Made by a program: the position numbers and the translations under genes. A stretch of DNA of 64,000 bases from Bilabrum cf. latius (Eukaryota). Where the stretch lies: NCBI GenBank assembly GCA_965178125.1, contig OZ237764.1, positions 62,001 to 126,000 of the forward strand, read 5' to 3'. Position 1 is the stretch's first letter; each line of letters opens with the position of its first letter. This document shows positions 1 through 64,000 of this stretch, one piece after another. Below the pieces are notes generated by a model. It was given only the letters and a program-made list of their open reading frames with translations. It was not told the origin of the DNA and did not search any database.

Positions 1-3000
1 CACGACAGGCCCCCGCCCCGTGCCGAGGACGCGACACTTGGGCTGCAGCAGGGGCCACAGGGAAGAAGACTAGGCAGTGCAGCCTCGAGCCGCGTGAATC
101 TCCGAACGCCAAAGACAGCTGCCATCACTACGCGACAGCAAGCGGCTGGCGGCACAGCGGGGGCTATTTTGCCGTACGGTCAGCCGCAAGGCGGCGGTGA
201 GCACCCAGATGGGGTCGTGCTGACACCCGCCCAAGAGGCTATTCGACAACGCAACCTGCAGCTGGAGTCCAGGCAATCTGAGCAGCGATCCGATGGTGGC
301 GCCGGCATGCAGTACCACCGTGCTGGGCCAGAATTTGCCGTGGTGCGGTCGGCGGTGCCTATCCCCCGGCACGCGCCCGCCAAGCTTAAGCACCTGCTTG
401 CAGTCCGCGCCGTTGCCCTCACCACCCGCTGGGAGGCTTTTCTCGAGAAACACCGCAGCGAGACATCCAAGACGGACACCAAGGGCCGCAAACTACAAGG
501 AGGCGCTGCTTGGGGCGGTTCCACGGAGGTGCAGGGGATTAATGTGATGGAGCTGTCGGACGTCGACCAGCGGGCGAGAGACCTTCTGGATGAATTAGAC
601 AGGGCAAACGGGTGTGCCAAGCCAACGATGGACTCGGCCGTGCTCTATGGTGTGGAGCAGCGGTACCAGACGATCACCCTTCGTGCAGAGCTCGAGAAGG
701 AGCTCGACCTAGTGCTGCAACGGCAAGTGTTGGAGAGGGAGTAGGTCGAGACGGCACTGCAGCTGGAAATTGCAGACACAAACGCAGCCAAGATCAAGAA
801 GCGGGCTGAGCAGCAGGCCAAGCGGCTCGAGGCAGCCCGCGCAGAGGTCCTAAAGCAGATGAAAGACGAGGACGAGGGCAGGGTCAAGGCAGTGGCTGGC
901 GAGCTGGAGGCCATGAATTCGACGTCTGGTGGACTGCTTTCGGACGACGAGCGCGCCAGGAATGAGGGTATCCAAATTGCCATCGCAAGGGCCAAGGCAG
1001 AACGCGCGAAACTCAGGGGACACGACGCCAGCCTGGCGATGGAGGAGAAGGAGGTGGAGAACAGGGCTAAGGCCGAAGAGCGCGCCATCAAGGAGCAGCT
1101 GGCTCTGGATCTGGCTGGGGTGCGAGGGGGTGCGCAGGAAGACGAGCAGGACCCAATCCAGGAAATCGGGGGGCTGGCCAAGTGGGGTGCCCCCGACAAG
1201 CCGCTTACCCCGCGCCGAGCCAGGGAAATGCGCATTCGCAAGCGGGAGCAGGCAGAGGAGCAGCGGCTGCAGGAGCAGTTGATGGAGGATGGAGACGAGA
1301 TGGACTCCTAGCAGAGAGCCATGGTTAGGGGCAAGTTGAAGACCATCCGAGACCGCAGGCGAGCCCAGGCTTAGACGATGCTGCGCAAACGCAAAGAAGG
1401 AGCGGATGGTGGCGCGGGGGGCAATGGCAGCGAAGGCACGCCGCACGACGACGATGAGGAAGAAGAGTCCAAGCGTGTCGTGCTGCCGCCCTGGCAGTCC
1501 ACTGAGGACGTGGTGGGGCTCAAGGCGCGGCAGGAGGAGCTCGAGCAGGAGCTGCTACGAGTGAGGACGCTGCCCGAGGAGATCGAGGTCGTGGAGACAC
1601 ACGTCCTTCTCTCGGTGCTCCGAGGAGGTCGTGCAAGAGTGACCGTCCAGGATGCAATCATGGAGTTGGCCACCGAGGTGTAGGACGTCCGAAATCGGCT
1701 GCGGCTAGTGGATCTGGACCGGGAGCTTCACGCGGCCTATTCGTCCAAGGAGGCCAGCATCGAGACGACGGCCATGCACGGATACAAACAGACCGCCTGG
1801 AGGCTCGACGCTATCGCTGCACTGGAGCGGGACAGCAACCGCATCGTGGCACGGCAGGTGGCGCTAGGACTGGTGGACGATATTCTCGAGTGGATGCTGG
1901 AGGGCTGGTACTTTGGGGAGAGGGAGTCCGCCGCTGCCGTGTCTGGGTTCGTGCCCTCTCTGCAGAAAGACAGGCCCCTGCGGCCGTACGAGTCTGCCTC
2001 CACAGCAGCGCAGCAGTACAAGATGCAAGGCGCAGCGGCGCAGGCGCAGGCGATGGACGCAGCAAGGGGTCTGGCCCCTGCCATTGGGGACCCCATGGGC
2101 AACGCCAAGGCCGCTGCCACGCTGTAGGACTTGGATCCGTCCGGGCGCATCTTCCCCGTGGCTCGCGCAGGGGATGCGCTAGCCATTGCAAACTCGCTGC
2201 GGGTGCAAGAAGAGCAGGACGGCTTCGAGGGCGGGCGGCCGGATACGTCATGGGCGCGCATCACCACTGCCGAGGCGGGCGACAGGGGCAGGGCGGCCGG
2301 CGCTGGTGGCCCGGGCATGCTCGCTATCGAGGACGGGGATGCCAGCGGCGGTGGGGCGGCGAGGATGGGCTCTGGTAGTACGGCGGGCGGCTAGCTAGTC
2401 CCTGCAGGAGGCAGCGGGGCCAACGCAGGGGCCATGGTGCCCTATGGTTCGCGATCCGGGGGCAGAGGTGGCAGCAGGGGTCAGCTGGTCGGCCGCGTAA
2501 CATCAATGCCGGGCGGGGATGGGCGGGCCCCTCTCAGGTTCCGGTGGGGCGTCCTGCAGGCGACGGTGGACGCCCGTGATTCCCTCCGGCGGGCCATCTC
2601 GAAGCGACAGGAGGTCGATATCACCATGCGCAGAGCGGAGCGAACGCTCAAGTTCGCCATGTTCCTCTACTCCCTCGTGTACTTCCGCGCCATGACGCAG
2701 CTGCGGAAGCAGAAGGACGTGTGGTCTGGGGCCAAAGACGCCGCGCTTGTGGCTGGCGCCCGCCGCACTGTGAAGGTCACCGCGGAGCGACGGCGCATGG
2801 ACGAGGTGGACAAGGCCAGGCAGCTGAGGGAGGACCGGCTGCAGAAATTCGAGCAGCTCGCGGCGCGGGGGTTTGCAGCCCGCGCCCAGCGAGCCACCTA
2901 GGAGCGCAAAGAGGCCGCTGCCAAGCGTACCAAGCAGCAAAAGCTGCGGCGAGCGCGCATCGAGGCGGCAAAGTCTCTGCAGAGGGCCTTCCGCGGGTAC

Positions 3001-3711
3001 CGGGCGCGGGGCCTGGCCTTTGTGCTGGCGCGCAAGAGGAGGCAGGAGGTTGCCGAGAAGGCGCGCCTGCGGGCTGCAGCCACAGCGATTCAGGCAGTGT
3101 TCCGGTCTCATTTGGCGCAGAAGGTGCTCGTAGAGAGGAGGAGAGAGCTGACCGCATTCGTGCGGCTGCTGAGGAGGCAGGAGCAGCAGGAGATGGAGGA
3201 GGAATACTACCGGAACAACCCTCTGGAGAGGTTCAAGAGGGACGTGACAGATTTTTTCAAAACTCGAGGAGAGGCCAAGGCGAAGGCAGACCAGCAGGCA
3301 GCTCGACCCCTGCGGGTGGAAGGCGACGAGAGGCGAGACGAGGAGGAGCTGGGAGAAGGGGACCCAGTGGCTCAGGATGGAGGTGCTCCCTTGGACGTAA
3401 AGGCCCTTGGAAACGATTCCAAGTACTTTGCGTTGCGGAGGCAGTACTCGCCCGTGGTGATCGGGAAAGGCCCTGTGAACACACAGTACCGGGCGGGGGG
3501 CGCCTACAGGGATGTAGCGGAGCGGCTAATGGACATGATGACCCGCAGCAAGGCTCAGGCCAAACAGAAGGGTGCCGCAGATATGGCGGCCTTGGCACGC
3601 AGCCAGGCCGGTCTTGGCGATCCGGATGACTCGGACAGTGACGGAGGGGCAGGCCCCGACTTGGGAAAGGGAACCGGCGCGGGAGGAGCTGCAGCGGGGG
3701 GCGGGTATTGA
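1..3711 (+). CDS. Coiled-coil, IQ-motif protein (5' partial), read with TAG=Gln
   Basis: ORF pieces 94-744, 859-1311, 1378-1683, 1708-2127, 2131-2394, 2434-2901 and 3022-3711 share one frame. They are separated only by TAG (742, 1309, 1372, 1681, 2125, 2392, 2899). The frame is open from position 1 and ends at TGA 3709-3711. IQ-like motifs are AAKSLQRAFRGYRAR and AATAIQAVFRSHLAQ. Confidence 0.8.
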
Positions 3712-4054: not shown

Positions 4055-5304
4055 TCACGTGGGGCCCAGCGCATCCGCTCCTGTCCCAGTCCCAGCCCCG
4101 CTCCCTAGGATCGACGAGAGACCGAGCACATTCCCGCTCTGGAATGCTGAGAAGGGGTCCTCCCGACCCGACCCCCCTTCATCCCCAGCCCCCGCCCCGC
4201 CGCTGGTTCGTCTCTCCGCGCTCATGCTCTTGGCATGCTACCCTTGTCTGGACCACGCCTGGGAGACAGGTGACATGGCGGCTGGGTCTGCACTGGGCTC
4301 GCCAGTCACCAGGGGCGGCGGGGAAACCATCCCACCTACCCCCAGCCCGGCACCTCCGTCAGCAGGTTGCAGCACAGATGGCCCGTGCGTCGGAGACAGC
4401 GTGAGTCCCCTGGACACGATGCTCCGCTCGAAGGACAGCTCCTGACGGGCTGCAGCCAAGCCCATCGGTAGTAGAGGCTCGTGGCCAGCAAGACCAGCAG
4501 CACCTGGACCTGCCCTCTGTCCAGCAAGGGCCCCACGCACGGCCGAGTCGGCGTAGTCCCTGCTGCTGTGCGCCCTGCTGCGGTCTAGCCCACGAGGGCG
4601 GCCGTCTGGATGGGGCTCCGGGCCGTGCTGATGGAAAGTGCCGGGCACAGATGGGTGCTTGCTTGCTGCTTCCCATCCACTACCACCCCGCGCAGCAGCA
4701 GCTGCAGCTGCAACTGCCGCGGCTGCTGGTAGTCCCCCCGTTGCTTGGGAAAGCCCCTCGGATGCCCCCGAGAAGATCATCTGCTGATGCCCAGCGCCGT
4801 ACTGCTGCGTGTGCCGCTGCAGCTGATGTGGCTGCGCGCCATGTGCAGGTGGAGGACCGAGGGGCATGGGTGCAGTGCCGTGCACCCAGGCAGATGCGGG
4901 CATGCCGACCCCAAGTTGCGCCGCGGGGCCCGTTTGGGAGCCCGCACCACCGTGAGTGTGCGGGTCGAAGGGGCGCGCCGAGGGATCCAGCGAGAGAGCA
5001 CCACCGCTAATGCGCTACTGCTAGCCCCACCGCTCTGCCTCTGCATGCGCGTGCGAGCTACCCCCAAGGTGAGGCAGACCCTCCGAGCTAGGGTGCTTGT
5101 GAGCGGCTCCCAGTCCGCGCCTCAAGTCGCCTTGCATGGTGACGTGGCCGTGCAACTGCATCGCCTGCTGCTGAGTCAAGCTGCCTGGCACGCCAGCGAA
5201 GCCTCGAGACGATCCAACTACTGGCACCGCCATGTACTGCACCCGGACTCCATGCCCACCGCTCTCCGTACTACTGGGCTGCGGTGCGGGGTGGACAGCG
5301 TGCA

Positions 5305-5342
<38 letters not shown>

Positions 5343-5408
5343 GACGCTCGGCTACCGCCTTGCTTACCCTGTCCGGGACTGCGGTGCTGTTGCTGGTGTC
5401 TCTAATTC

Positions 5409-5441
<33 letters not shown>

Positions 5442-8400
5442 GCAGCTTTTCTTGCTCTACGAGATCTCTTCTTCTTACCAGGCGTGTGCTCCTTGCCCTA
5501 GCCGTGTCCCTGTCCCCGTCCACTCTGCCTCTCTCCCCCATGCTTGCCCCCGACAGATCCATGGGCATGGCCCCCGCCGTGCTCTTTCCCGCTCTTGCCC
5601 CCTGGCACTCGGTGCCCACCCAGCCCTCGCAGCACCTTGCCTTGGGCAATGAGCTCCTGGCCCTCCTCTGTCACCAAGTCTCGGCAATACACGTGGGGGT
5701 TGAACTGATGGTCCCTGCCGAGTACGAACGCGTCAGGGTAGTGCTCCAGGAATCGCTTCAGGCCCCCGAATCGCTCCTTGAGCAAGGCAGGCAGGCCGTC
5801 GTGAGGCACCGCCTCCTGCAGATGCTTGCCCACCTCACCCACCGGAAGCGATCCATGCTCTAGCAGCACCTCCCGTGCCAGGCTAATGAGCGCCCCAGAG
5901 GTCACGTCAGCGTCCAGTACCATGCAGCAGTAGTCAAGCTAGTCCTCCACCTCCTGCGGATCACTCGCAAAGAAAGAGCTCCACAGCCCACCCAAAGTGC
6001 CGCGCCTGTAGAGCACGCGCACTGCATACAGAGCTGCCAGCTACAAAGCAGGGGCGCTGGGCCGGGACCCCCCGGGCCCAGGGGGCACATACACGATTCC
6101 GCACTGAATTCGGCCTGTTGGCTGGTTGGCGGGCGGTACTCGCCTGCTGGTTAGTGCAGGTGTCGAGGAGCGGGACAAAGTGGATTGCAGCTCCTTCAGT
6201 AGCAGCCCCCCTGCGGTGACTCGCAACTAGGAGCCCACGCGGTCGAGGGCTGTGCCTTGGGGCGTATGAGAGGCGTCCGACGACTGCCCTGCGGAGATAG
6301 TCTGAATACTAGGAGCTCCTGCACGGGCGCACGAGCAGTGGCCAGTCACACAGCAAGCCATCACCAGCGTGTCATCGCAGCCGCACTGACATCTGCACGC
6401 AGAGTATCCGTGCTCCTTGTAGCACCCGCTACCGTCTAGCCCGCACTTCCCCTTGTCCATGTCTTCGTCAATCTTGCCGCACTTGGAGCACACGCCGTCC
6501 GTGTCCGTGCGGCTCAAGCAGCAGCTCTCTATCTCGCAGCACATGTCGAATCCAAGCACGAGCCTCCTCTACTCCTGCGATTGCACAGCAGCTGAGCACG
6601 CAGACGCAGCCAGGCAGGAGTTGAGCGCAGCCTGGGCCTGCTCCTGACGTATGCCGCACTGCTCGCAACAGGCCTTGCGGGAGGACGCATCGTCTGTGCT
6701 GATCAATGTTTCATCGTCCTCGCTGCCAGAGTCGTGCCCCGCACCACGCCCAGCCGCGCGATGCTTTCCGCTGCCGTGCCGCATGGGAGACACGTCCTCT
6801 CCGGGGAGTGGAGGGGCGCATCCAGGACAGCATGGCCCCGCGTGTGTGGTCTAGCGGTTGTTTGCATCACAGCAGCGCGCCTGGCAGCTCACGCAGGCCC
6901 CGCTCGACATCATCCTGGTGAGGTCGTCAAAGTCGCCCAGGTGCTCTGGTCCTGCCCCCGCTGCCTCCCACATGGGCTCAAAGGCGACACACAGCTCCTT
7001 GGCAGCGACAGCTGCTGCCGACTTCGCCTCCGGTGCCAGCATGGATGTGAGCAGGAGTGCCTTGGCCGCCATGGCAGGCTCGCTGGAGGACTACCGACTG
7101 CGGCTGCGACTCCTTGCCCGCTTCTTGTCGCTCTGACGATCTCCCGCATTTCCGCCTGAAGCGGCCCGCTCCGCATAAGGGTAGGCATCCGCTGCTGTAG
7201 ATGCTTCGCTGGGTGGACTTGGTCCGCTGGGGCTGCTGCTGCCTGCGATCGCCCCGGCATGCGCGTCAATCACCGAAGCAACCTCAGCCGCCGTTGCCCG
7301 CAGCACGATGGGGCAAATGACAGCACAGCTCTGCTAGAAGGCGCGCCTGATCCTCCTCGCATCCCTGGCTCTGATCCCCTCGCATAGGTTACGGCCGGGG
7401 AGCAGCGGGTCCTCCACAACCAGCCGGTGACCAGCAGGCGCTTGCAGCGGGGGCGGCACTCTGACCCCTGTGCGGAACTACTCCGAGCCAGGCGGACCAG
7501 CCCGTTTCTGGCACCGGAGCCGGGTCTGCAGCAGCCAAGGGGCGTCAATCAGAGCGTGCAGCGCCGGCTGCTTGGCTCGCACATGCGCTGGCCAGCCAGC
7601 TGCAGGCGGTGGCCGCTGTCTCCTAGACCTGGAGCTGCGGGAGCCTTTGCCGCTTGGGGATCCCACGCCGCTGTTGCTGCTGGACACCCGGTTCGCCCGC
7701 TGTACGCTGCTGGCACTCTCTGTCCTGGCGTGGGACCGCTGCTCTGGCGAAGCCTCGGCTCCGCCTAGCCTTCCCGCCGAAGCCGCGCTCGCTCCCGACA
7801 GAAGCCGAGGGAGGCCGCCTGACGATGAAGACACGGGCCGCTCGAGTTTATGCGCGGCCCCACCACCCGGCTGCTCCCCAGAGGATTGCATCGTGCTGGC
7901 TAGATGGATCGAGTCCGGCGCTGCCGAAGAGCTGCTCCTAGACTGGTGTTTCCGCTCGAGTGCCGCGGCAGAGGCAGAGTACACCTCGTCGGACACCCGG
8001 AGCCCCTGCGCCGCCACGGAAGTCCCCCCGTAGACGTGATCAATGGGCACCGCACCTTCGATGGAAACCGCCTGCTCGTCCCAGCGCAGTTGCGTGCAGT
8101 CGAACAGCAGCCAGGCCAAGGCCTGCAGCGGTTGCGCGATGACGGTCCTCCGACGGGCAAACACCCACATGAGCAATGCTACGAACACGCGCAGATCTAG
8201 CTGTCGGAACGCATCCCCGGCTCCCCTCGTCAGAGCAGGCGCCATGTGGGCAGCCCACGTGCGCACCAGGATGAGCGACCGCAGGAACAAGTGGGTTCTC
8301 TTGAGCGACTGGTCCACCCGCAGGATGGCCGCCACGGTTGCCAGCGAGGCCAAGTCGTCCGCCACCACGCGCACCCTGACTCCGTCAAGTAAGGTTTCGA

Positions 8401-11400
8401 TGCTGTCGCTGCGCTCATGGTCTCCACGCCGGATGGCAACGTGCCCTACTTGGCACAAAGGCAAAGAACCGGATGCACGAGCCACTGCCGCCGCTGGGGG
8501 GGGCGGTGCAGCTGTTTCCGGCTTGTGCGCGGAGTGCGAGGACGAGCGGCGCGCACGTGTTCCCGTATCGGGTGTGTCTCCAGGAGACTTGTGGGGGTAT
8601 GGGGAGGGCCCCGCGGAGCCATCCCCTCCGCTCGTCGCGCTGTTGAAGGAGGCCCGCAGCACAAAGCGGCCAGTCTGGCCGTGCGCGCCCAGTGCATGAC
8701 CAGCGATCGCCCTGGCGGCAGACGACTGGCCTGCAGCGGTGTTGCCCTTTCCTGGGGGCGTCAACGGACTTCCAGCCTTACCCCCCTATCCTCCACGTCC
8801 ATCCCCGCCCATACCCGTGGCTTGCGCCACCGAGTCAGCGAGGTCTGTGAAGCTGCCCTGCTCCCGGCTGGTAAAAGAGCCCACCGCTGAGCTCACAAAG
8901 CTGCCACCGCGCGTGTGCTGCCTCGGCCTAGCCCCTTCGTCGCCGTCAGGCCCCGCTGTGGACCGCCGCACCCTGCGCTCGACACCGGCTCCATCCACCG
9001 ATTTACCATGCGCCATGGATCCCCGTCCATTGCGCTGCGCTGCAGAGCCTTCGATAGCTCTGGCCGCTTCTGCCGCAGCCAGCCGCACCGCCGCATCCTC
9101 TTCATCTTGTTGAGGACCCCCATCATCCTCAACTACAGCGTCCTTGCCGTCGCGCGCAGAGCCTGCCGGGTGTCTTCCCTGCATCCACAAAGTTCGCTGC
9201 TCCCTGTCCATCGAGTCCACCGCTGCGATGGCCTCCTCCACAGCGGCTCCGAGCGTGTGCTGCGAGGCCAGTTTGGTCCTCTCCGTGCTCAGCACCACTG
9301 AGCCAGTAGACTCCCAGCCTGGACCCCCGATACGACCCCTTCGTTCTGAGGACGTCACGGAGCGCACAGAGCTGTGCTCAGACACGGCTGCTGCCACGAT
9401 GGCTCGCTGCATGTCGGCCGGTTGCATGTGCATCAGCGAGCTCGGCCCCGCCGAGCCCGAGCCTGACTGTCCGGGGGATCCGCTGCGGCTCGAACCAAGT
9501 AGCCCAGTCCCAGACGGCACCCCCGGGAGCGCCAGCATCTGATTCAAGCTGCGGCCACGGTCTGCCGGCGATAGCTTGGACCTGGCTCGGACCATTGGTT
9601 GGGCCGTCTCCCCTGATTTTTTCCCGCTGGTGGCGGGCGACGAGTGCAGGAGTGCGTCGCTGCTTGCACTCCTCAAGTCAGGCTGCATGCGCACGGGAGC
9701 TGGTCGAGAGCTCGGGGAGGTCTGGTCTCCTGTCCCCTGCCTTGGCTTTCGCTGTGACTTGGGGTCAACGAGTGCACCCGAGTTGGACCTGCTGGGACGG
9801 CTGCCAGACTCGCTGCTGCGATCCGGATCCAGGTGAGACTCGCCGGCCTCAGAGCCTGCCCGGCCTCGATCTTGCCCCGTCGGCCTGCTGCCTCCTTCCT
9901 GCGGCCACCCGCCGATTCGGGCAGCCGACACCTCCACCTCAGGTAGCGCCAGCAGTGCCTCTGACGCACCCAGCACCCATTTGACTTCGCGGTCGGGCGA
10001 CATGAACAGACTCAAAAGCACGCGATCGCCCGCCATCCCCGCCCCGGCAGGCACGGGCCCAAGCGGGAACACCCGCCCGCCGGCCACCTTGCTGGTCAGC
10101 GCCGCCAACATCGCGGACACCCGCCGCATGAGCTCTCGCTCCGCGTCCCCCGGCACAAGCGACAGCAAGAGGGCGTCAGTCACGTCATCGACTGCTGCAC
10201 GCGAGGGAACAACCTGCTGGGCCCGTGCCTGCAGTCCCTTGGGCAAAGTGGCGCCCTCCTGCAGGCCCTCGGCGGCTTGCACCCGCGCGCACGCTCGGAG
10301 GGTGGCGGACAGTGCGGCCATGTTGCTCTCAAAGTGCTGCGGGGCCAGCAGGGGGGCCTGTTGCGCTGCCTATTCCGCAGAGACTTGCAGAGCACTAATC
10401 AGCGGTGCACCCCCGGCCGGGGCATGAGGGTCGGCGACCTAAAGCTCGTGCTTTCCCACGCTGACGTGGCCCATGCCACGGGGGGGCAGGGTGCCCGGCA
10501 GTCCCCGGGGCAGGGATGTGATCGAGTCTCGTTGCCCGCCCTGCTAGCCCAATGGTTGAGCGCCAGACGCGCCTGCCGAGTGGCCGGTCCCCGCCTCGCT
10601 GACCACACTGTCCACCTAGCTCGCCGCCGCGCTGGCCCTGGATCCCCTCCTCCACTTGGCCTCGCCACCTGCAGACAGAAGACTGCCGCTGGCCCCCGGA
10701 GAGCCCATTTGCACTTGCTCTGGTCGGGGCTGCGAGGGCGAGCTGTATTCCCTGGATCTGGACAATGAAGATGCAGATGCAAGCGCTGCTACACCCGCGG
10801 GGTCCTCGCCGGAGGAGACCCATTGCTTGGGGGGCGGGAGCTGGAGGCTGGAGGGCCTGCTTGAGGCCTCCCCGCCGTACACGCCTTCGCCTGCATCGCC
10901 ACTTCCAAATGTGCGACCCTGCGGCACGGCCAGCGGGGCGGCACCCGGTCCTACTCTAGATAAATCCGTCTGCGCCCTAAGCGGAGGCGATTTCTAAGCA
11001 GGCTCAGGCAGTGGCGGCCTCACTCCAAACCTAGACATGATGCCGGCTAGCTGCTCGTTGCCACCAGGCACCTGCAGAAGGGCCTATTGCAGTGCAGATA
11101 TCATGGCAGCCTGATCGGCGCTCCCATTCGTTGCCTGGGCGAGTGGGGCGCCGAAATCATCGCTGGATTCGGCCGCCCGCGTCGCGCTCGAATGCAGCAT
11201 CGGGACATGTCCAGCAGGTCCAGATGAGCTAGAAGCGGGCGCGGTGCTAGCCGGTAGCTATCCTCCATTGTTGTGCTGGTGCTCGCGTTTCGCTGTCTGG
11301 GCCGCGGCTCGGGGTGGGCTGGAGAAATCCTGCGATTGGAGAGGCGAGAATCGAGTCACGGGTTCAGAGTGCAAAGGCTTCGCGATACAAACAGAACGAA

Positions 11401-12783
11401 GGTGTTGAGTGGCGCGCAGCCACGGCAATGGGATGGATGGACCTCACTAGCAGTCGATCCAGCAGCGGAAGCTGCGAGCTCGCCGTTCTCGTGCCACTGT
11501 CCAGGAACCGCCGGAGTGCTCGCGTGGCTCTCGCAATGGGGATACGCGCGGCAGCCCGCAGGAATGCTTCCAGCCTGCCCTTTCTCTCGTCGATCAGGTC
11601 TCGGCTCAGGCTGCTGAACACGGTTTTGGGCGGCAGTTCCAGTGCCCGCATGGCCTCCAGCTGGGCCTGCCGCTCCACATGGTGCGGGGAGGCGACCCTA
11701 CTGTCGGACACAGAGTCAGCGGCAGCGGCAGAGGCAGACGATGCCCTGCTGCTAGAGCCGCGGGGGGCGCCTCCTTTCCTTTCGGCACCTGTGCCTGCCC
11801 GTGCCCCTGCGCTTGCACTCCCCTGGCTCCCCGCACTCCCCTGGCTCGAAGCACGCGTCGGACCTCCGAACGGGGCACCCCCCACGGACACCAGCCCCGC
11901 GGGAGAAGCCGCCGTGGGTGCCAGCGCGGGGGAAGCCGCTGCAGCGCGACCCACACCCTGATCCACCTCGCTGGCAACCCTGTCGATGTCATCTGCCGCG
12001 GCCCTGAGATCCGAGTGCAGAGAGACGAACTGCTTGAAGCGGCGGAGCACGCGCCACTCGAGGGGGCGGCGGCGGCTCTGGGGCCGGTGGGGGTCCTTGG
12101 ACCTGCGCTGGCTGGGATCTAGGTCCTGTCGCTCGCCCACGCGTACTCGGACTTCGTACTGCGTGAAGGCACCGCCCGCGTCCTGGCTCGTCCTCGTCCC
12201 AACCACCGAGACGTCGAGCGCAGGGTCTGCGAAGGCCGTGTCGGCTTTACCACGCGGATCTCGTTCTGCGATCGTAGGGGACAGACGAAACTTAGGCAGC
12301 AATCATGGTGGGCCAGCAAAGGCACTGTTAGTTGAGATGATTTGGGTACACAAAAATCAGCACTTGAGCGCTACCGTGGCAAGGCTCACTTGATTCGGTA
12401 GACGACATCGCATCTGCCGCTTCGCTATAGCTTGGAGCAGTCACAGGCTGGCCTACCAACACTGTTTCGGGGCCAAATCCCTCTGAGCCTCTTTTGGGAG
12501 ACCTAGGAGCGGCCGGCGAATCCTGTTCTGGATGACCAGATCTCGACCGAGCGCTATCTCTTCGTCTTCCAGGCCCCACATATTCTTGATCCTTCGACAA
12601 TCTACGATTTGTACCATATACATCTGGCGTTGGCACGTGATCGGTCCCACTCTGTGATGAGACAGCGCGCCACGACCTTTGCATCATGCCGTGCTACTGA
12701 CGCTGCGCTGCCCCACCTCTCCGGAAGCTACTTCCTGGCGCATCGCCCGACAGCTTGGGGGATATCCCTTGCCTACGATCCAT
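4055..12783 (-). CDS. ~2,800-aa protein: PX domain, degenerate Pol-beta-type nucleotidyltransferase (PAP/OAS1 substrate-binding-like), Cys-rich insert, OST-HTH/LOTUS-like domain, poly-Q and PAM2-like motif
   Basis: ATG at 12783. Introns 12266-12389 (phase 1) and 11330-11447 (phase 0) preserve frame. One frame then runs, broken only by TAG, to TGA at 4055-4057. PX motifs: TQYEVRV, WRVLRRFKQFVSLHSDL, LPPK, IDERKGRLEAFL. NTase-family motifs: HLFLRSLILVRTW, QPLQAL..LRWDEQAVSIEGAVPI, VEDPLLPGRNL. wHTH: GSLPVGEVGKHL..LKERFGGLKRFLEHYPDAF. Additional small introns cannot be excluded. Confidence 0.75.
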
Positions 12784-40015: not shown

Positions 40016-40113
40016 TAATCTTGCATTGTATTGCGCCGCAAAAGCGAGCCATTGGTTGTTTACAGTCGCATCACAGCGACGCGAAAATACAGTTTCAAAA
40101 CATCGAATCAACA

Positions 40114-50457: not shown

Positions 50458-50760
50458 ATGGATTGGCTAAGGTACATTCCTTACTTCCAAGTGTATGAGA
50501 AGTACACAATTTTCGTTACTCCGCTGGACTCGTTTCATCTCAACGTGCCAGAGCAACAGGGACGAAATATTCGCTTTGTGTTCTACTTCTTGATCGCAAT
50601 CATACTGGCAGCTCTGGCTGGTGGTGTATACGTAGCTCTGTGGTCGATTCATGATTGCTTGTGGAAACGAGACAGCGATGAGGAGGCAGACAAAGGAGCG
50701 GTCGCACAGGCGAAACGCTTCGAAGCTGCAGTAGATGCCATCAAGGACAAACTAGAGTAA
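50458..50760 (+). CDS. Small hypothetical single-pass membrane protein
   Basis: Uninterrupted ORF from ATG 50401 or 50458 to TAA 50758. It has one strong hydrophobic segment (FVFYFLIAIILAALAGGVYVALW) followed by a charged tail. No family recognised. Confidence 0.5.
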   Translation: MDWLRYIPYFQVYEKYTIFVTPLDSFHLNVPEQQGRNIRFVFYFLIAIILAALAGGVYVALWSIHDCLWKRDSDEEADKGAVAQAKRFEAAVDAIKDKLE

Positions 50761-53700: not shown

Positions 53701-54190
53701 CTCGCCTCTGGCCATGCACTCGCTCAGGAGCTACGAGAGTGCGGCCAGTCGACTGGTGCAGGGCGGCTCACGGGGTGCCTTCCTGCTGGGGGCCATGCGG
53801 GCCAGGATTGAAGGGGCCAGGCGGCCGGCGACAGGAAACCAGGGGTCCCGGGATCACGGTAGAGCAGGCAGTGAGCGACTCCAAGGGGCAGAGACGGGAG
53901 TTGGTGCATGCCCCGCCAGGGCCAGGCTGGCGGGGGGAAGCGGCGGGGGCGCGAGGGCGACCCTCTTCGACCAAGGGCTGCAGGCAGAGGCGCTGAGGAG
54001 GGCAGCGGCTGCCATGGTCGAAGCAAGCAGCTGCAGGCAGGTTGATACTGGCAATCGCGGCCACAAGGGCGGGTCTAGTGAGGCTAAGGACGGGCATGCA
54101 GTGCGGGGAAACCAGCCGAGAGCCAAGCGCTGGCAAATCATAGTCGCGCCTCAGCTCCGAGCAGACGGCTGTACCCGTGAATCGGCCTGA
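50735..54190 (+). CDS. GT41 (OGT/SPINDLY-like) glycosyltransferase with degenerate TPRs and a predicted signal peptide
   Basis: Frame 2 is open (TAG=Gln) from ATG 50735 to TGA 54188. Motifs: LSVGFLSSDFGVHPVAQL, IDVLIELNGHT, APVQATWLG, VDYFLAD, KWTPAVVDAWAALL, DLALDT..NGHTSSLDALWGGVPLVTL. Start is inferred. Confidence 0.85.
52994..53014 (+). repeat. (TAGGGC)n coding microsatellite, QGQGQGQ under TAG=Gln
   Basis: TAG GGC TAG GGC TAG GGC TAG is in frame between the two GT41 catalytic halves. Confidence 0.85.
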
Positions 54191-54514: not shown

Positions 54515-55191
54515 TCAGGCGAACTCGATGTGCTTGGTGCGCTTAAGGGGCCTGTTCCACCTGATCTTGCACTCCTTGCACTCAAGTCGGATAGCCAAGC
54601 GCTTGGTGGTCTTCGCCTTCTTGTGGAAGATGGGCTTGGTCTGCCCACCATATCCGGACTGCTTCTCGTCGTAACGGCGCTTTCCTGCGAGGAGGTGATT
54701 TGTTGAGCCGGTGCGATTCAAGAGGGATGCATCCCAGCAGCAACGTAGGCAAGTCCCGTCGACCTAGAATCATCGTTGGACGCATGCACGGTTACGATGG
54801 GACCTCGCACGCATCCAAACAGTGATCTAATTATATTTAAACATGGGCGGTGGTGCACTGCCCTCAAAGCATGTCTTACCCTGAGCGAAAAGGGAGGCCT
54901 TGCCCTTGGGGGCCTGGCCGATCTTGCAGGTCGTGTGCTTCTTGCACCTCCGGCAGTGCGTACGCATGGTCTTTGGCATAACCACCTGCACAACAAAATA
55001 GTGGGTGCGCGAGGCAATCAAAGGGCGTGAGAAGCACAATTGGGCCGGAAATAGGCCGCATGAGCAACCGAGCGAGGCCTCATTGACCCCGCACAGCTCC
55101 ATGAGGGGTCAAAGCAGCAATATGCAGCCGAGAACATAATCTATCATGACAGTTTTAGCGTTGGTTAGCACTGCTTGAGCTATCTTACCAT
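54515..55191 (-). CDS. RPL44: 60S ribosomal protein eL42 (L44/L36a)
   Basis: Exons 55191-55189 (ATG only), 54985-54880 and 54684-54515 (TGA). Protein: [60 protein letters not shown]. It contains no TAG codons. Confidence 0.95.
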
Positions 55192-55326: not shown

Positions 55327-57176
55327 ATGCGGTCAATATTCTGCCTTTTCGCAGCGCTCGCACTTGCTTCTATTAAACATGTATTGGCAGCAGGTGCTGC
55401 CAAGAATGTAATTGTGCTGCTTACTGATGACCAGGTGAGGATCCGGGTCAGTCTGGTGATGCTGTTTTCTTCGAGATAGGCGATTATCTGTGCTGTATGT
55501 CAAATGCATTCGCTTTTTCAATATATTCATTATTCGTTTCTTCACAGGACTACACTCTTGGCTCTTTGGAAACGATGCCGGGCCTGCGATCTCTGGTTCA
55601 GCAGACCGGCCTGACCTTCGAGCACGGGCTTGTCAACACCCCCGTGTGTTGCCCGTCACGGTCGGAGGGAATCACATCTAGATATGGCCATAATCTTTAT
55701 ACCAAGTCTGGTGGCTGCATGTACATGAACTCGAACTCGCCCGAGTGGAAGTCTGCGAACGTCGGAGCGCAAGTCAAGTCGGCCGTCGGCGCGGGAGTGC
55801 GCACCGGCATGTTCGGCAAGTGGCTCAACACGCGCGGATGGTTCTGCGGCAAGAACGCAGACTAGGTGCCTCCTGGGTGGGACCACTTCCAGGCGCTGTG
55901 CACCGGCGATTTCTTCAACCAGACGTACAACGTGAACGGGAAGGAGGTCCCCACGACGGGGTACCAGACCGCCGTGCTGGGCAACGCCACAGTGCAGTTC
56001 ATACGGGAGGCCGTGGGCGCGGGAGACCGCTTCTTTATCTACCTAGCCCCCCACGCCCCCCACATCGCGGACTCCGTGTACCCCTACATCACCCAGCCGG
56101 CGCCTTGGTACGACAACGCCACGCTGTCGCGAGACACGTCCCCCCGCGTGCCGAACTGGAACCACAGCGGCAGCGACCACCACTGGCTGATCCGGCAGCA
56201 GCCTCCGCTGGTCCCCTTCGAGGTCGACTGGAGTGACTCGCTCTTCCGTGCCCGCTGGAGGTCTCTGCTCTCTGTGGACGACATGCTGCGGTCCATCGTG
56301 TCCGAGCTGGTCGCCCTGGGCGAATTCGATGACACTGGGATCCTGTACCAGGCGGACCATGGGTACTCTCTTGGCTCCCTCAGGATGGTCAGCGGGAAGT
56401 GGAACGTGTACGACAATGACGTGCGCATCCCGTTCCTGATGCGCGGGCCGGGGGTGCCTCAGGGGGCGCGCACGGATGCCATCGCCAGCAACATCGACGT
56501 TGTCCCGACCGTCCTTGACTGGATGGGGGGCACGGCACACCCCGACAACGACGGCCGCTCTCTCATGCCACTGGCCCAGGATCTCGACCGCAGGCTGCAG
56601 CAGAGGTAGGCGCTCGAGGCACAGGGCAAGCAGGCAGACCCCGCCTCGGGGCTTGCCCTCCCCGCGCACCTCGACTTGGCCCGCTCTGCGGCACAGGTGC
56701 TGGCCCGCGACGCACCAGGCGGGCCCACTGGGGCCAACGATGTGCCGGGCGGTAGCCTCCCTCTGCTGCCCGCGGGTCCGATGGCCCCCCACGAGACGTT
56801 CTTGATCGAGTACTGGGGCCTCGGCGAGGTCATGAGGGGAGCGCCCACGTCACCCGAGTGCAACCCCCACAACGGGTTCTGCAAGCCGGGGTGCCCTTGC
56901 TACTTTAGGCTGGAGGACACCGCGAACAACACCTACATTGCGGCCAGGAGAGTCAACTCGACCACCAACGTCATGTACGCCGAGTTCTACCCAAACAACC
57001 ACCAGAGCGCCTTCAACACGACCCCGTACTTCAAGGAGCTCTACGACCTGGACAAAGACCCCTGGCAGATGAACAACCTGGCGCAGGGCTCCCAGGCGCC
57101 CCAGGGTCTCATGCAGGAGCTCAGCGACTGGATGCACAGGCAGGTCAAGTGCGCCGGGCAATCGTGCGAGGCGTGA
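55327..57176 (+). CDS. Secreted/lysosomal sulfatase, N-acetylglucosamine-6-sulfatase-like
   Basis: Signal peptide MRSIFCLFAALALAS.. then NVIVLLTDDQ|D across intron 55435-55547. Motifs: TPVCCPSR (CxPxR), GMFGKWLN, LLSVDD, ADHGY, YDNDVRIPF, ELYDLDKDPWQMNNL. TAGs at 55863 and 56607, TGA at 57174. Confidence 0.92.
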
Positions 57177-57384: not shown

Positions 57385-60300
57385 TCACTCTTCCCCGGGA
57401 GCGTCACCACCTGCCGAAGCTACCTCCTGCCCTCGCCGGCGCCGCAACCCTTCATCATCACCTGCCTCCCCGCCCCCAGCGCCATTCCTTTCCTCACCGT
57501 CCACTGCACCCTCCCCAACCCCCCCACCCCCTTCCTAGGTCTCCCGCTCCGCCGCCGCTGCCGCCATTGCCTCCACCTCTGCCCTCCGCAGTGCATCCAC
57601 GGCCGCGGGCTCGCCAGGGAACGGCAGGCCCCGCCTCAGTCGGGCCAGCACCCGCGGGGGCAGCTGCTCTGGTGCCCTCCAGAATGGCAGCAGCGACAAG
57701 AAGAGAGAGGACACGAAGAGCCACGAGTCCCACAGCGGATGGAAGCCGGGCGGCCGCTGCCTCAGCCGCACCGCCGCTCTGTGCTCCGCCTCTCTCCTCC
57801 TCATCGCCGCCTCCTCCTCCCCTTCTCCTGGCTGCCCGCCTCCCTCTCCTCCCCCCTGCCCCGCCCCTGCAGCACCATTGCCGTTCCCTGCCGCCGCATC
57901 CTGCCCTCCCCGGCAGCAGGAGCAGCAGCAGCAGCAGCACCTCCTCATGCAGCACGGACCCAGGCACTCCCCCACGGCCTTCAACGCGCCCGAGTAGGCC
58001 AAGTACAGCACCACGCTCATCACCGTCACAGTCCAGAATCTGGTGCTGGGCGCACCTTGCGCAAACACGAACCACATGATGCCCACCCGCAGCAGCAGCC
58101 CCAGCTACACGAAGCGAAGCAGCCCGCCCTGCTGCTGCTGCAGCTGCTGCTGCTACTGCTGCTCGCCAGCCTCCCCATCCTCACCCTCGTCCCCATTCTC
58201 ATCCTCTGCATCTTCTTCCTCGTCTGCATCGCTCCCGTCATCCTCAACACCTTCACCTTCACCTGCACCTTGCTCAGTTCCTCTCCCAGCATCCTGCTCT
58301 GACGCATCATCGCCTGGGCTGCTTCCTGCCCTGTGTTCGCCACCACTCCCGCTCGGCTCCACCTTCCTCGTCTAGCCTAGCCCAGCCGATCCCTCCTCCG
58401 ATGCAGGCGCACTGGCCACTACTCTGTTTGTCTCTTGGCTGAAACTGACGGACTCGACCCTGGGTCGGCCACCGCCTCCTCTCAAGCTAGTTCCCTCGTC
58501 GGCCGCACCTTCCCCTTCCCCCAACCCTTCCCCGTTGCCCCCGGCAGAGCCAGCGTCCTTGTCGTTGTCGCTGTCGCTGTCGCTTCCCGAGCTCGAGTCA
58601 GAGTCGGAGTCGGAGTCGGAATCCGAGTCAGTATCCGAATCTGAGTCAGTGTCGGTGTCACCCGAAACCTCCGATACCCTCCCTTCGATGTGCCGCTCCA
58701 CCCCCGCGGGTACCGCTCTCACCCCCATTCCCCCGAGAGAGGAGAGGAGAGGGGAGCTGGCAGGCACCCTCAACGGCGTCCTAGGGCTGGCCGAGTCACC
58801 AGCAACCCCTCGCTCCACGTCAACCAAGCCCGCGCTGTGGCCCGCCCCCGCCCCCGCGTACGTGGATGGGCCCATGGACAGCGATCGGACCACGGCAGTG
58901 GGAGGCATCAGACCCGAGCTGGCGCCTGGGCTCAGCAGCCCAGCGGAGTGTGCCCCCGGCCCCATCTGGGTCAGGGCAGCAGTGCCGGGGTCCAGAGCAC
59001 CCATGGGAGACACGCCCGAACTCGCGCGTGCCCTGGCCTGTGGGGGCGAGGGCACGCCGACTGCCTGCTCCAGCGCGGAAGCCTGCAGCAGCAGGTGGTC
59101 TGCCTGCGCCCTCAGCTGCTGGGCCCGCTGGGCGGCAGCCAGCTGCAGGGGCGAGAACCGCTACGCTGCATGTCCGTTGAGTTCTGCGAGCCCGCCGAGT
59201 CCAGCGGCTGCATCCTAGGCAGGGGTGGAAGGGGCACTCCTGGACTCGCCGGATTGGCCACCCACAGGTAGGCCGGTAACCATCACCGACACCGGCCGCA
59301 GCGGAGACTACGTGGGAGTGGAAGCCGCGTGCATCCGAGCCGGGGGCACCTGCGGGCCATGCGAGGGCGAGAGGGGGGGCCTCGAGGAACTGGGGGGTGC
59401 CGCCGCGTCTGAGACTGACCTGCGCTTTCTGTTGGCAAGGTGCTGCTCTGGGCTACCGATAGGCCCCGCGTATCCTGCAGGTCCCGTCTGATTTCTCTCG
59501 ATCCCCATCGTGGCTCCCAGAGCGCGGATGCGCTGAGCAGCTGCGGCTCCTGCCGGCATGGACTTGCGACCGCCCTGCTGCCTCCTCGCGGCATGTGGGT
59601 GCGGCCTGGAGCGCGGTCTCTCGTGCGCGGGCAGCGTGGCTGCGTCCCCTTCCCCCGATGAGCCGGACACCCAGGAGAGGCCGGCCGTCTCTGGCGTGGC
59701 ACCACCTCCGTCCAGGTCGCCAGAGTCGGGCTGGCTAGCATCTGCGGGCATTTGCACGCGCTGCGGGGGAGACATGGAAGCGTTCAGCCCCCGCATGGCA
59801 GTCAGCAAGCCGCCCTCCTCGTGGCCAGTATTGCGGTGGTGAGGGTGGTGCGAGCCAGGGGCGAGGGGCTGGCTCGCGGCTGGAAGGGGCTGCTAGGCCG
59901 AGTTGTGCTCGTGTCCGTGGTCATTTGCGCTGCCAGTGGGCGCCCCTCGCACCGCCACAGCCGCCCTGCCCATCTGCGGGGACCGCAGCGCGATGGGAGA
60001 CCCAATGTCGTCGCCGGGGTGTCCCCTTGTGCCGGCTCCTGTCTGCCCACCGGTCCCATGCTGCCCGTACTGAGTTGGCATGGTAAGGAAAGACGTGCTG
60101 GATCGCTCGCTGCCGATGCTGTGCGCATCCACAGTGTTGAAATGGCCTGGGTGCACCGCTGGAGCCGCAACATGCATGTGGGCAGGGCTACCAGCAAATC
60201 CAGTGGGCGCCGCTCGGACCGCCACAGCCGCCCTGCCCATCTGCGGGGACCGCAGCGCGATGGGAGACCCAATGTCGTCGCCGGGGTGTCCCCTTGTGCG

Positions 60301-62310
60301 GGCTCCTGTCTGCCCACCGGTCCCATGCTGCCCGTACTGAGTTGGCATGGTAAGGAAAGACGTGCTGGATCGCTCGCTGCCGATGCTGTGCGCATCTGCT
60401 GGCCCCGCGCTCGCCTCCCCGCCGCTCTGCTACGACGTCTGTCGCCCTGCGGCGGCGATCTGCATGGGCGAGGACACAGCCCGTTGCATGCCACCGGGTG
60501 TGCTGGGCGTCAGCAGGCGATCGTCTGATCCAGGCACTGACGTAGTTGCGATCGAGGTGTTGGTGCTCGATGCCTGCGTGTCTTGCTGAGCCGCTGCGGC
60601 AGAACTTGAGCTGGAGCTGGAGCTGGAGCCAGAGGCCGACCCGGTGGCAGTGGCAGGCATCGGAGTGGATGCTCCGGACAGGTCCCCAGCGCGACTGTCC
60701 GCGTCGGGCGCTCTGATGCCCCCAGCAGGCTGCATGGAGGGCGTCATCACGCTGGCTCCGTCCTGGGATTGGGGGCCTCGCTCCACGCTTGCGGCGTCCC
60801 CGCTGCTCAAGTCTCTTCCTGCCGCAGCGATGAACGATGCCAGCTGCTGTTCCGCTGACTACCTAGCAGATTGCACCCTCGCAGGTACATGGACGGAAGA
60901 AGCAGCAATGCCCGCGATTTGGGCTCGACCAGTAGACTCGCCCCCGTCTCTGCCTCTGCCTCTGCCTCCATGCTCGTGCTCGTGCCCATCGCCCTTCCCC
61001 TCTTCCTCCTAATCTCGCGGGGACAACAAAGCCCCCTGGGCCGACTGAGCACGAGTCTGCGACCACCCTGCGCGCGCCACTGCGGGATTGGCCAGCCCCG
61101 CCTCGCTGCGAGAGTCATCCGCGCCAGTGCCAGTGGGGGGATGCCCCCCGGGGAACTCACCCTCGCCATGTCCATGTCCAGGTCCATGTCCATGCTCTGG
61201 CTCGTACGCCGCCCCATCCTATCCCCCCGTACCTTGTGCTGCCCGCGCCGCCTCCTCGCTAGCCCCCGCCACCCTTTTGGCCCCCGCCTCTTTTGTGTCC
61301 AGCTCGATGGACCGCTGGGATGGCTGCAACGAGCTCAGCAGCAGCGCATGCATGTCCCCGCGAGGAGCGCTGTCGGCTCGCGACTGGAACACGAGCCTGC
61401 CCATCGGCGCTTGTTGACTCTCTTGTCCGTCTCCTTGCCTCTGTCCGTCCGGCCGCGACACCTCCAGGCCGCTACCCTCGCCCAACTGCCCCTGCCCCTG
61501 CTCGTCCTCCTGCCTGTCCCCGCCGTCCCCGCTCTGCAGCTGGTCCTGGAAGGAAACCCGCCCTTTTGACCGTCTGCGAGCCAACGTCGAGCCTGCAGGT
61601 GTCTTGCTTCCTCTGCTGCTATCGCTGCTGGTGGGCACCTGCCCAGAGGGACTATCCCCGTCATCAACGTCCTGCCCCGCCGGTGGCTCGTGGGGGGTGT
61701 CGGACGAGCGGCCTGAGCCCATGGAGCGCACGGCTGCATCCAGCAGGGGAGTCGCGACGCCGATATCGGAAGATACTGAATGCAGCCGGCCGGCGACGCG
61801 TGGAGATTTGCCGAGGCTGTCTGCGGGCCTCTCGTGCTCACTGGAGGACGATTCTGAGCTGTCGTCTGCATCTAGGTGGTGATCCCCGCTTACTGCTCCA
61901 GTGCTTACACGCCTAGCCATCGAGCCGGGATCTTCCAGGTTAGCATGCTATTCTCGAACATCTGGGGATAGCATGAGGTGGAGAGTTTTTCGACTGGCCT
62001 GCGAGGTGTGGAGCGTTCTGACAATCTACAGCAACCGGTGGCATCCAGCGATTATCTGCATCAGAGCAAGTGGTTTCGGGGCACTGGCAAAGCATCATAC
62101 CTAGATACGTTTTAGTGGCGTTGTGTCATCCCCACTAAGCTCCGCGCCACCCATCAGCAGTCGAAATGCTGCAGGCTCCAAAGGCAAGGGCAACACGGGG
62201 TGCTTCTCTGCTACTTGCTATCGAATTGTCGCAAGCGTCGAGTCACTCGGCACCTCGATGTGGAAAGAGCCTTTCTCCTTGTTGTAGACGTCGATCACCT
62301 GCACTCTCAT
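57385..62310 (-). CDS. HERP/Usa1-like protein: N-terminal ubiquitin-like domain, long disordered linker, C-terminal TM region
   Basis: ATG 62310 begins a UBL-like sequence (MRVQVID..FHIEVPSDSTLATIR[TAG]QVAE..DDTTPLK..KTLHLML). Intron 61999-62100. A single frame with TAGs runs to TGA 57385. C-terminal hydrophobic segments: LLLRVGIMWFVF..VVLYLAY and WLFVSSLFLSLLP. Confidence 0.65.
59933..60396. repeat. ~197-bp near-identical direct repeat (59933-60129 and 60200-60396), period 267 bp
   Basis: The copies are nearly identical. The period equals 89 codons, so frame is preserved in the minus-strand CDS. Confidence 0.9.
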
Positions 62311-62480
62311 GTCATATATTGTGAATATCCACGGCCCAGTGTACACGTTGCGTGCTCTTTCACGCATCATCCTGGTCAAATCGGATCTGTTGCGTGCTCC
62401 GCTCTGCATCCCAACTTCGTTCGTCTTGGAGGCAGCTTCCTTCCATAGCTACTTACTTTGCAATTGCATCTAGGATCGAG

Positions 62481-64000
62481 ATGGAAATGAGCCACAACGA
62501 GCTGAGAGAACTCCAAAACGGTGAGCTGCCCGTTGTCTACTCCCAACTCCGACTCATTCGTTTGGATGGCCTAATACAGCGGAACATAAATGGTAGAATA
62601 GATTTCTTAGTTAGGCATTGAGGCAACGATTGGCGCCAAGTTGTCGCATAGTTAGTGGTCCGTGGAACTGGGTGTTTCCGTTCGGTTGCAGTACGCTCTT
62701 CTTTCGCAGGCTTCGTGGGGTACAAGGTGAACAAGAAAGGAAACTACAGCAAAGTGAGAAAAAATTGTCTAGTATACTAGTCAGAGCTTCGCCTGCCTTG
62801 CATTTAATACCTCTAAGCTCCACACAACACGGCGACGCAGAAAGCTGTGTTTTTTACATCTGACGGTTGCAAGCTGGGCTGGAAGCCATCTAAGAACGCA
62901 ACAGAGTACAGTGAGTGGACATGCACGAGTCTATTTTGTAGCTATCCGTACTCAGAGGTTCCACCTCGATGGTGTCCCGCTTCCCTACCCGCAGTCCCGC
63001 TGCAAGAGATCGAGCATGTCGCCGGGATCACACACGATGATAGCTGGCAGTCCTTCCTGGGAACGTATGCAGCAACTCTGCGGAAGCAGCTCAGCACGGA
63101 TCGTGCTGTTGATACTCCCGACTCCACGGTGGTGGAGCTAGAGAAACTGGGAGGAGCAAAGGGCGGCTGGGCCTCGTGGGCCGCCAGAGTGTTCCGCCTC
63201 CGCGGCAGGGAGCTCGCCTACCACAAAGGGTCCCTGGACCAGCCCATGGCAGGCACCATAGACGTCCCACTTGGCACAGGGGTGGAGACGCGCGGGGAGG
63301 GCCCCGTCCACATGCTGCTGCGGCCCCCGGCCCAGGCGGAGGGCCCCGTCAGGGAGCTGAGGTCCAGCGACACTGCTGCGGTGGCCAGGCTGAGCGCAGC
63401 GATCCGGACCTCGTGCAGTGTGCCGCTGCACCGATGCCTGCAGCAGGCTGCATCCATTGCGGAGGGCAGGGGCATGGAGCCAGATCGAGGAGGAGGTGCA
63501 CCTGGCTCTGGCTCTGGGTCGTCGCTTGAAGCCCGCGCGACGAGGGCGGGCACTGGCACCGGCATCAGTGCACTTGGTGCTGCCGCCAGCCGCTGCATAG
63601 GCGAAGCGGCCGGGAGCACACCCCGGGAAGCAGACCGGTCGGAGGACTTTGCCAGCCTCATGGGCCGACGGGCGATCACAATCGTCACACGCCGCCGGTC
63701 TCTCCGTCTGGTGGCCAGCAGCCCTGCCAACGCCTCCAGGCTGCTGTTCCTGCTGTCCTCGCACCTCATGCAGAGAGAGCAAGGAGGGGCCACTGGATCC
63801 GCCGGGAGAGGTCCCACTGTGCCTGGCCTGGATGCCGTGCAGCGGGCCTCTGCAGTGCTGGCGCGGCCCCTGGAGAGCGAGCCACCGATCAGGGCCTCGG
63901 CTGCGGGGGTGCTCCTGAGGGCGGGGCGGGCATGGGAGGCGCTGGGGCTGGTGTGCACCCGCGGCACGGAGGGATGCCCCGCCTGCATGGAGGTGCGGGG
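62481..64000 (+). CDS. PH-domain protein (3' partial), split PH with a nested second PH
   Basis: Predicted exons 62481-62520, 62710-62753, 62841-62910 and 62995->64000, with all phases consistent. Protein: ELQNGFVGYKVNKKGNYSKKAVFFTSDGCKLGWKPSK..IPLQEIEHV, then LEKLGGAKGGWASWAARVFRLRGRELAYHK..AGTIDV, then AITIVTRRRSLRLVASSPANASRLL. Open to the window end. Confidence 0.7.

Follow-up and report, generated by a model that had tools for sequence, protein, structure and literature searches.

Nuclear codes in which UAG has parted from UAA are described for Iotanema, a rhizarian, Scotinosphaera, and a handful of ciliates, as recounted in PMC11687900. In the fornicate Iotanema spirale, UAG encodes glutamine (Gln) while UAA and UGA are stops, with UAA as the primary terminator (Panek et al. 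2017, PMC5304391). Phyllopharyngean ciliates and Protocruzia tuzeti also read UAG as Gln, in what are presented as recent independent events that place UAG at conserved Gln positions (McGowan et al. 2024, PMC11687900). UAG encodes Leu in the rhizarian exLh and Ser in Scotinosphaera, according to the accounts in PMC5304391 and PMC11687900. Amoeboaphelidium protococcarum reads both UAA and UAG (UAR) as Gln (Karpov et al. 2013, cited in PMC5304391, PMC6299283, PMC11687900), and its genome has 40.5% G+C (PMC10608142, Table 1). NCBI table 15, the code in which UAG alone is Gln, is also described as applied to TAG-recoded phages (PMC9523058). Here we analyze 64,000 nucleotides of Bilabrum cf. latius (contig OZ237764.1, assembly GCA_965178125.1; "the window" hereafter means this whole stretch), with a base composition of 64% G+C. 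The window very probably comes from the nuclear genome of a GC-rich eukaryote that has changed UAG completely from a stop into a Gln codon, terminates translation at UGA, and keeps UAA out of its reading frames.

The window resembles Iotanema, as that organism is described, in that a non-ciliate has assigned UAG to Gln and has not done so with UAA, and the same pair of adaptations, a tRNA-Gln(CUA) and an altered eRF1, is predicted for it. Termination sets the two apart. UAA is the primary terminator of Iotanema, whereas all 23 of the genes scored in the window and a related metagenomic locus (L001, see below) end in TGA, and UAA is unseen there either as sense or as stop. Furthermore, the Iotanema evidence as published is transcriptomic, whereas here it comes from genomic DNA with 64% G+C, and the window proteins do not point to Metamonada, although the trees that place them contain no metamonads. 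Phyllopharyngeans and Protocruzia share the UAG-only reassignment to Gln, but the genomes of those ciliates are reported at 27-54% G+C with UAA as the preferred stop (PMC11687900), in contrast to 64% G+C and UGA in the window. The exLh and Scotinosphaera codes, as summarized in the sources above, likewise uncouple UAG from UAA in a non-ciliate nuclear genome; the amino acid differs, being Gln here. Amoeboaphelidium has in common with Bilabrum a stop-to-Gln change and an association with algae, but both UAA and UAG are given as Gln in its 40.5% G+C genome, whereas the window is GC-rich and its bystin falls on the non-opisthokont side of a tree. Table 15 phages carry the same assignments as described (TAG as Gln, TAA and TGA as stops), in phage genomes rather than in a spliced eukaryotic nuclear genome. 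The code itself is already known, as NCBI table 15 and from Iotanema, Protocruzia, and some phyllopharyngeans. Termination dominated by UGA is a real difference from the UAG-only cases as they are published, whatever the status of UAA.

TAG Behaves as a Sense Triplet

Read with the standard code, the window has no stop-to-stop frame longer than 711 codons, the next longest having 593 and 565. When TAG is read as sense, frames of 2758, 2462, 2445, 1569, 1236, 1198, and 1146 codons open; reading TAA as sense instead of TAG leaves the list of longest frames unchanged. Stop triplets were counted in 16 large open reading frames (ORFs) that together hold 17,800 codons. TAG occurs 106 times in frame versus 110 times in the +1 frame and 106 times in the +2 frame, a distribution without depletion. 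Internal TGA, on the other hand, is found 0 times in frame versus 253 and 300 times out of frame, and TAA 0 times versus 32 and 44. TAA and TGA together make up 1.77% of out-of-frame codons, and at that rate a frame of at least 1146 codons lacking both would arise with a chance of about 1e-9. The persistence of TAG within frames and the exclusion of TGA and TAA thus indicate that TAG is handled as any sense triplet.

An annotation made initially from the letters of the window had estimated about 100 in-frame TAGs across nearly all genes and had seen no internal TAA or TGA. Both observations are borne out by the counts: 115 TAGs are in frame in 17 of 21 gene ORFs (106 in the 16 large ORFs, 4 in the TACO1/YebC-like gene, 2 in a bZIP gene, and 3 in a small spliced gene). 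In a set of 17 ORFs that holds 110 TAGs, 105 of them lie 3' of the first ATG, and the few that precede it may belong to an untranslated region or an intron.

Codon usage gives a second view of the same triplets. Stretches of 40 codons were scored with the tested gene left out of training. The coding score averages +0.21 per codon downstream of TAG (n = 106, 91% positive) and +0.20 upstream, and drops to -0.15 past the terminal TGAs (n = 16, 12% positive). Conserved domains also continue through TAG. Among the Pfam families matched on TAG-open frames are GDP-mannose 4,6-dehydratase (GMD; E 5e-153) and bystin (E 4e-114), with further matches to sulfatase, GT41, 2OG-Fe(II) oxygenase, CRAL-TRIO/RhoGAP, ankyrin/TPR/RGS, TACO1/YebC, ribosomal L44, bZIP, and LRR families. 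The matches extend across TAGs in GMD (residues 15-348), bystin (207-499), sulfatase (44-366), and TACO1/YebC (89-294).

These data bear on the suggestion that the TAGs are not translated as such, and are instead assembly or sequencing errors, marks of pseudogenes, sites of U-to-C editing, or parts of introns. Pseudogenes fit poorly with conserved domains and with a coding signal as strong after TAG as before it. Sequencing error is countered by comparison of four runs from four studies over positions 35001-55000, a span of 20 kb, in which the same letters recur and no differing letter is listed. The only indels listed are two small insertions (2-3 bases) at 44559-44560 in one contig of run X5, inside the 2758-codon ORF; they are missing from the other runs and may reflect variation between strains, or a difference in assembly, within repetitive sequence.

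Editing and splicing-out were addressed with contigs of runs X5 and X6. These contigs show joints with GT..AG or CT..AC ends where run X1 shows none, and are thus considered to be spliced. Pieces of X5 and X6 with zero differences from the window cover 24 of the 30 in-frame TAGs in 35001-55000. For example, all 5 TAGs of the membrane-protein-like ORF (35583..37793) are covered in this way, all 10 TAGs of the GT41 ORF lie on one X5 contig, and two bystin TAGs share a contig with the intron joint of that gene. Retention of TAG in spliced contigs argues against editing. No joint removes a TAG except for the triplet at 38849, which had already been assigned to an intron. Taken together, these results make it scarcely credible that the TAGs escape translation by any of these routes, and the check for editing or removal by splicing that was proposed at the outset comes out on the side of a translated UAG. 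The introns themselves are spliceosomal, about 90-200 bases long, with GT..AG ends (CT..AC on the minus strand) defined by contigs of two runs (joints in Table 1), in agreement with the initial view of this DNA as eukaryotic and nuclear.

Two further features of the transcripts were recorded. One X5 contig spans 50445-54986 and extends from GT41 (plus strand) into L44, which converges on it from the minus strand, such that the 3' transcript ends abut or overlap. Read depth varies widely among adjacent genes, as RNA would.

UAG Corresponds to Glutamine

Three TAGs fall in alignment columns that are conserved well enough to be informative. The GMD site (KFY[TAG]ASTSELYG) is Gln in 119 of 119 homologues, and also in the Escherichia coli and Naegleria structures. 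Bystin residue 54, encoded by the second TAG of the gene (codon at 41485), falls in a column that is Gln in 113 of 119 homologues. TACO1/YebC residue 288 (TAG at 24821, LEDV[TAG]HVY) is Gln in 95 of 139 representatives and in three of four solved structures. These columns identify UAG as a sense codon for Gln, as far as alignment can assign it. The alignment of the sulfatase to solved structures is poor at the position of its TAG.

Protein calls from close strains in Logan provide an independent line of evidence. The strain proteins are 89-99% identical to the window, and the Logan gene calls treat TAG as a stop. This behavior is directly visible in the YebC-like gene (23960-24850), where P0241 starts at Met88 and ends exactly at the window TAG of residue 214 (24599), while P0391 and P0392 end exactly at the residue 288 TAG (24821). 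As the calls halt at TAG, a call that runs through a window TAG site must have a true sense codon there. At the seven such sites the close strains have Gln at six and Lys at one. In P0001 (97% identical to the window) all three TAG sites of bystin are Gln, P0121 and P0122 both have Gln at the GMD site, and a strain protein has it at YebC residue 271; in the 2462-codon ORF, residue 886 is Gln in P0393. For shorter strain fragments of this last ORF the search returned three proteins, low-complexity words having filled the candidates. The same gene calls illustrate a practical consequence: the YebC-like gene is split into pieces of 126, 67, and 200 residues (P0241, P0391, and P0392). Gene callers using the standard code break proteins at every TAG, and public catalogues are fragmented unless table 15 is applied.

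A scan of metagenomes with bystin yielded one relative, L001, with 3074 bases and 53% G+C. Its gene order matches window positions 37880-41646 (bystin 3' end, small basic protein, LRR). Over 656 aligned codons, TAG is paired nine times. Five of these pairings are with CAG, four of them an L001 TAG opposite a window CAG and one the reverse. One L001 TAG is opposite the window CAG for the Gln of the bystin WHQ motif, which is invariant in alignment A1, and two L001 TAGs in the LRR gene are opposite window CAG. Both sequences have TAG in a single pairing, at 39407 in the small basic protein gene. The related organism has the same TAG habit, with TAG and CAG interchanging between relatives. The homologue columns, the strain sites, and the L001 pairings all agree with the meaning proposed for UAG in the first annotation.

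Two observations on L001 stand apart from the codon assignment. The difference between 53% and 64% G+C is a large shift in composition for proteins that are 56-85% identical. In the small basic protein gene (39297-39409), the splice junction is followed directly by a TAG as the first complete codon (CAG|TAG), and L001 has a TAG there as well.

UGA Terminates, and UAA Is Absent from the Frames

TGA is the terminator of all 20 complete genes in the window and of all three genes of L001, and TAA ends none of them. In six genes the position of the C terminus is supported by a match that extends to the final residue ahead of the TGA or close to it. The matches are to solved structures or strain P0001 for GMD and bystin, to solved structures for YebC, to the Pfam model for L44, and to L001 for the LRR gene and the small basic protein. 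With the fall in coding score past TGA, these data uphold the initial claims that UGA is a stop and that no gene needs TAG as its terminator.

The same early description had gene models ending in "TGA or TAA" and UAA remaining a stop. The first statement holds for TGA (20 of 20) and not for TAA (0 of 20). The second found no support, with TAA terminators at 0 of 23 in the window and L001 combined, a count that, at 95% confidence, limits the share of TAA terminators to less than about 12%. UAA may be unused, or it may serve as an infrequent stop.

A sense role for UAA can be weighed from its absence. If TAA tracked TAG as CAA tracks CAG (149:623), about 25 in-frame TAAs would be expected, and the observed number is 0, indicating that UAA is not a sense codon. 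This result bears on a code in which UAA and UAG both encode Gln, as in many ciliates, hexamitin diplomonads, some ulvophytes, and Amoeboaphelidium, with UAA being rare here through high G+C. Such a code predicts UGA as the sole terminator, as seen in 23 of 23 genes, and 64% G+C does disfavor TAA. However, TAA occurs 32 and 44 times in the other two frames of the same 17,800 codons versus none in frame, and no long frame becomes longer when TAA is treated as sense. If TAG is counted as sense along with TAA, two ORFs grow, solely upstream of the start region, as TGA closes both at the 3' end. A UAR = Gln code is accordingly a highly improbable description of the window, and the earlier claim that UAA was not reassigned along with UAG stands.

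A second alternative is a dual meaning for UAG, as in Condylostoma, karyorelicts, and Blastocrithidia, in which it is read as sense internally and as a terminator near mRNA 3' ends. Most large low-complexity ORFs have no homologue that fixes the true C terminus, and this leaves room for such a role; so do the last three TAGs of the 2758-codon ORF, which lie 3, 4, and 11 codons before its TGA and may terminate. On the other hand, TAGs are distributed along whole ORFs, TGA is the end in each of the six genes whose C terminus is reached or nearly reached by a match, and the TAG located 9 codons before the YebC stop occupies a conserved Gln column. We regard dual meaning as quite improbable, and prefer UAG as a Gln codon wherever it is in frame.

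One frame in the window could change the count of terminators. Among TAA-ended frames that do not run antisense to a known gene, the one at 27397-27993 (+; 198 codons) scores best. It matches no Pfam family and lies 5' of the 2445-codon ORF. Should it prove to be a gene, it would contribute the only TAA terminator of the window.

Several observations weigh against full reassignment of UAG to Gln with UGA as the working stop, in addition to the three late TAGs of the 2758-codon ORF and the lack of any TAA terminator among 23 genes. The coding score downstream of TAG is negative for 9% of TAGs. P0392 has Lys at YebC residue 214, a window TAG, and L001 pairs TAG once with CAC (His) and twice with GCN (Ala), the GCN pairs being in poorly conserved stretches. 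In distant homologues the column of bystin residue 281 is Asp in 79, Glu in 14, Ala in 11, and Gln in 8; that of bystin residue 14 is variable; that of YebC residue 57 is Asp in 43, Glu in 35, and Gln in 25; and that of YebC residue 271 is Ala in 50. These variable, mostly polar columns neither support nor contradict Gln, as far as the alignments reach. Runs X5 and X6 were labeled RNA by guess, with X5 also marked "probably DNA", and it is the joints that identify their contigs as transcripts. The assignment of Gln is read from DNA, homologues, strains, and spliced contigs. Finally, tRNA scans find 0 tRNA genes in the window or L001, and the eRF1 gene lies outside the 64-kb window.

Predicted Decoding of UAG

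By analogy with characterized systems, UAG would be decoded by a tRNA-Gln with anticodon CUA. This anticodon would be one base away from that of tRNA-Gln(CUG) and unable to pair with UAA. According to the discussions in PMC5304391 and PMC11687900, CUA is the one anticodon that reads UAG but not UAA, a tRNA-Gln(CUA) is known from organisms with UAR = Gln, and eRF1 in such organisms usually has changes in motifs of its N domain. In Iotanema, such a change (T32G) is located near the GTS motif. The eRF1 of Bilabrum would similarly have lost efficient recognition of UAG. A scan of the window with Rfam gave 0 matches.

Affinities of the Organism

The organism is present in several independent sequencing runs. 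Two proteins were used to place it. The best named hits of bystin are chytrids, zygomycetes, and oomycetes at 43-50% identity, and those of GMD are stramenopiles, haptophytes, and one cryptophyte at 69-72% identity. The best 120 named hits of each protein include no ciliate, in line with the non-ciliate look noted at first. A quick maximum-likelihood tree of bystin was built from 44 rows picked from the 120 hits plus the window, and the GMD tree from 41 rows picked in the same manner. In the bystin tree, the window and P0001 fall in a nine-row clade of environmental sequences with a support of 99. This clade is opposite the fungi and a crustacean, on the side with diatom, ochrophyte, and oomycete sequences. 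In the GMD tree, the window is grouped with Cafeteria with a Shimodaira-Hasegawa-like approximate likelihood ratio (SH-aLRT) support of 94, which comes from a quick search and is graded as weakly supported. As both trees were drawn without Alveolata, Rhizaria, Archaeplastida, Amoebozoa, or Excavata, they say just that the organism is not an opisthokont and is near stramenopiles. The protein trees thus suggest an organism outside the opisthokonts with a weak stramenopile affinity.

An aphelid origin was also considered, given the chytrid bystin hits, runs labeled "algae metagenome", and the UAR = Gln code of Amoeboaphelidium. It was ruled out by the difference between 40.5% and 64% G+C, by the absence of Amoeboaphelidium from the best 120 hits, and by the non-opisthokont position of the window in the bystin tree. 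Nuclearia was dismissed as well, with 44% G+C and no code change mentioned.

Gene Content of the Window

The genes and ORFs of the window are listed in Table 1.

Table 1. Genes and open reading frames of the window, with in-frame TAGs, terminators, and intron joints
Feature	Position	Strand	In-frame TAG	Terminator	Intron joint
ORF with IQ motif, 5' end open	1..3711	+	7	TGA	
2462-codon ORF, no Pfam family	4055..11443	-	21	TGA	
PX-domain gene	11364..12302	-	0	TGA	
GDP-mannose 4,6-dehydratase, main exon	13307..14398	+	13709-13711	TGA	
2OG-Fe(II) oxygenase-domain gene	14743..16629	-	5	TGA	
bZIP gene, last exon	16877..17341	+	2 (16922, 16952)	TGA	
Endonuclease/exonuclease/phosphatase-family gene	17665..19890	+	4	TGA	
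CRAL-TRIO + RhoGAP gene	20118..23558	-	5	TGA	
TACO1/YebC-like gene	23960..24850	+	4 (24128, 24599, 24770, 24821)	TGA	
Kinase-like gene	24985..26958	-	3	TGA	
2445-codon low-complexity ORF	28176..35513	+	14	TGA	
Membrane-protein-like ORF	35583..37793	+	5	TGA	
LRR gene, spliced	37880..39100 (5' limit approximate)	-		TGA (37880-37882)	38834/38926, 38971/39071
Small basic protein, second exon	39404..40015	+	3 (39407, 39749, 39809)	TGA, then TAA	39296/39403
Bystin, exon 2	40114..41646	-	3 (41605, 41485, 40804)	TGA	41646/41809
Ankyrin/TPR/RGS ORF, 2758 codons	42007..50283	+	12	TGA	
GT41 (OGT-like) glycosyltransferase ORF	50594..54190	+	10	TGA	
Ribosomal protein L44 (eL42), spliced	54515..54986	-	0 in last exon	TGA (54515-54517)	54683/54879
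Sulfatase gene	55431..57176	+	2	TGA	
1569-codon low-complexity ORF	57385..62094	-	14	TGA	
ORF leaving window at 3' side	62817..63998	+	0		

Repeats are found in several of these ORFs. Around residues 470-495 of the ORF at 17665-19890 (+), PPASGSSASLP occurs twice in tandem, with a TAG after copy 1 and a Tyr codon after copy 2. The 2445-codon ORF (28176-35513 +) has an 8-residue unit, AKAKQEAD, in about 10 tandem copies near residue 470, and long serine-rich and acidic runs elsewhere. Four TAGs alternate with glycine codons in the GT41 gene at 52994-53014 (MQP-X-G-X-G-X-G-X-S, where X is TAG), an arrangement that resembles a short repeat of a TAG-GGN unit, and all four are within one X5 contig. 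Within the ORF at 57385-62094 (-), a segment of roughly 95 residues (VDAHSIGSERSSTSFLTMPTQYGQHGTGGQTG...) is directly duplicated, and the two copies differ little.

Implications for Stop Codon Evolution

No report of UAG = Gln in a stramenopile or a GC-rich non-ciliate was found in the full-text literature, a body of text that leaves most subscription journals uncovered. A stricter interpretation of the data is that this GC-rich lineage reads UAG as Gln, uses UGA as its sole working terminator, and has let UAA fall out of use as both sense and stop. We consider this unlikely at present. If true, it would be a three-state stop codon system (sense, stop, and unassigned), unlike Iotanema and the ciliates in which UAA is the main stop, and it would represent either a GC-driven route of codon disappearance or a half-way stage towards UAR = Gln.

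Uncoupled cases bear on the mechanistic coupling of UAA and UAG. To these, the present case adds genomic DNA from a GC-rich, UGA-terminating organism, a related species that shares the code, and turnover between TAG and CAG among strains.

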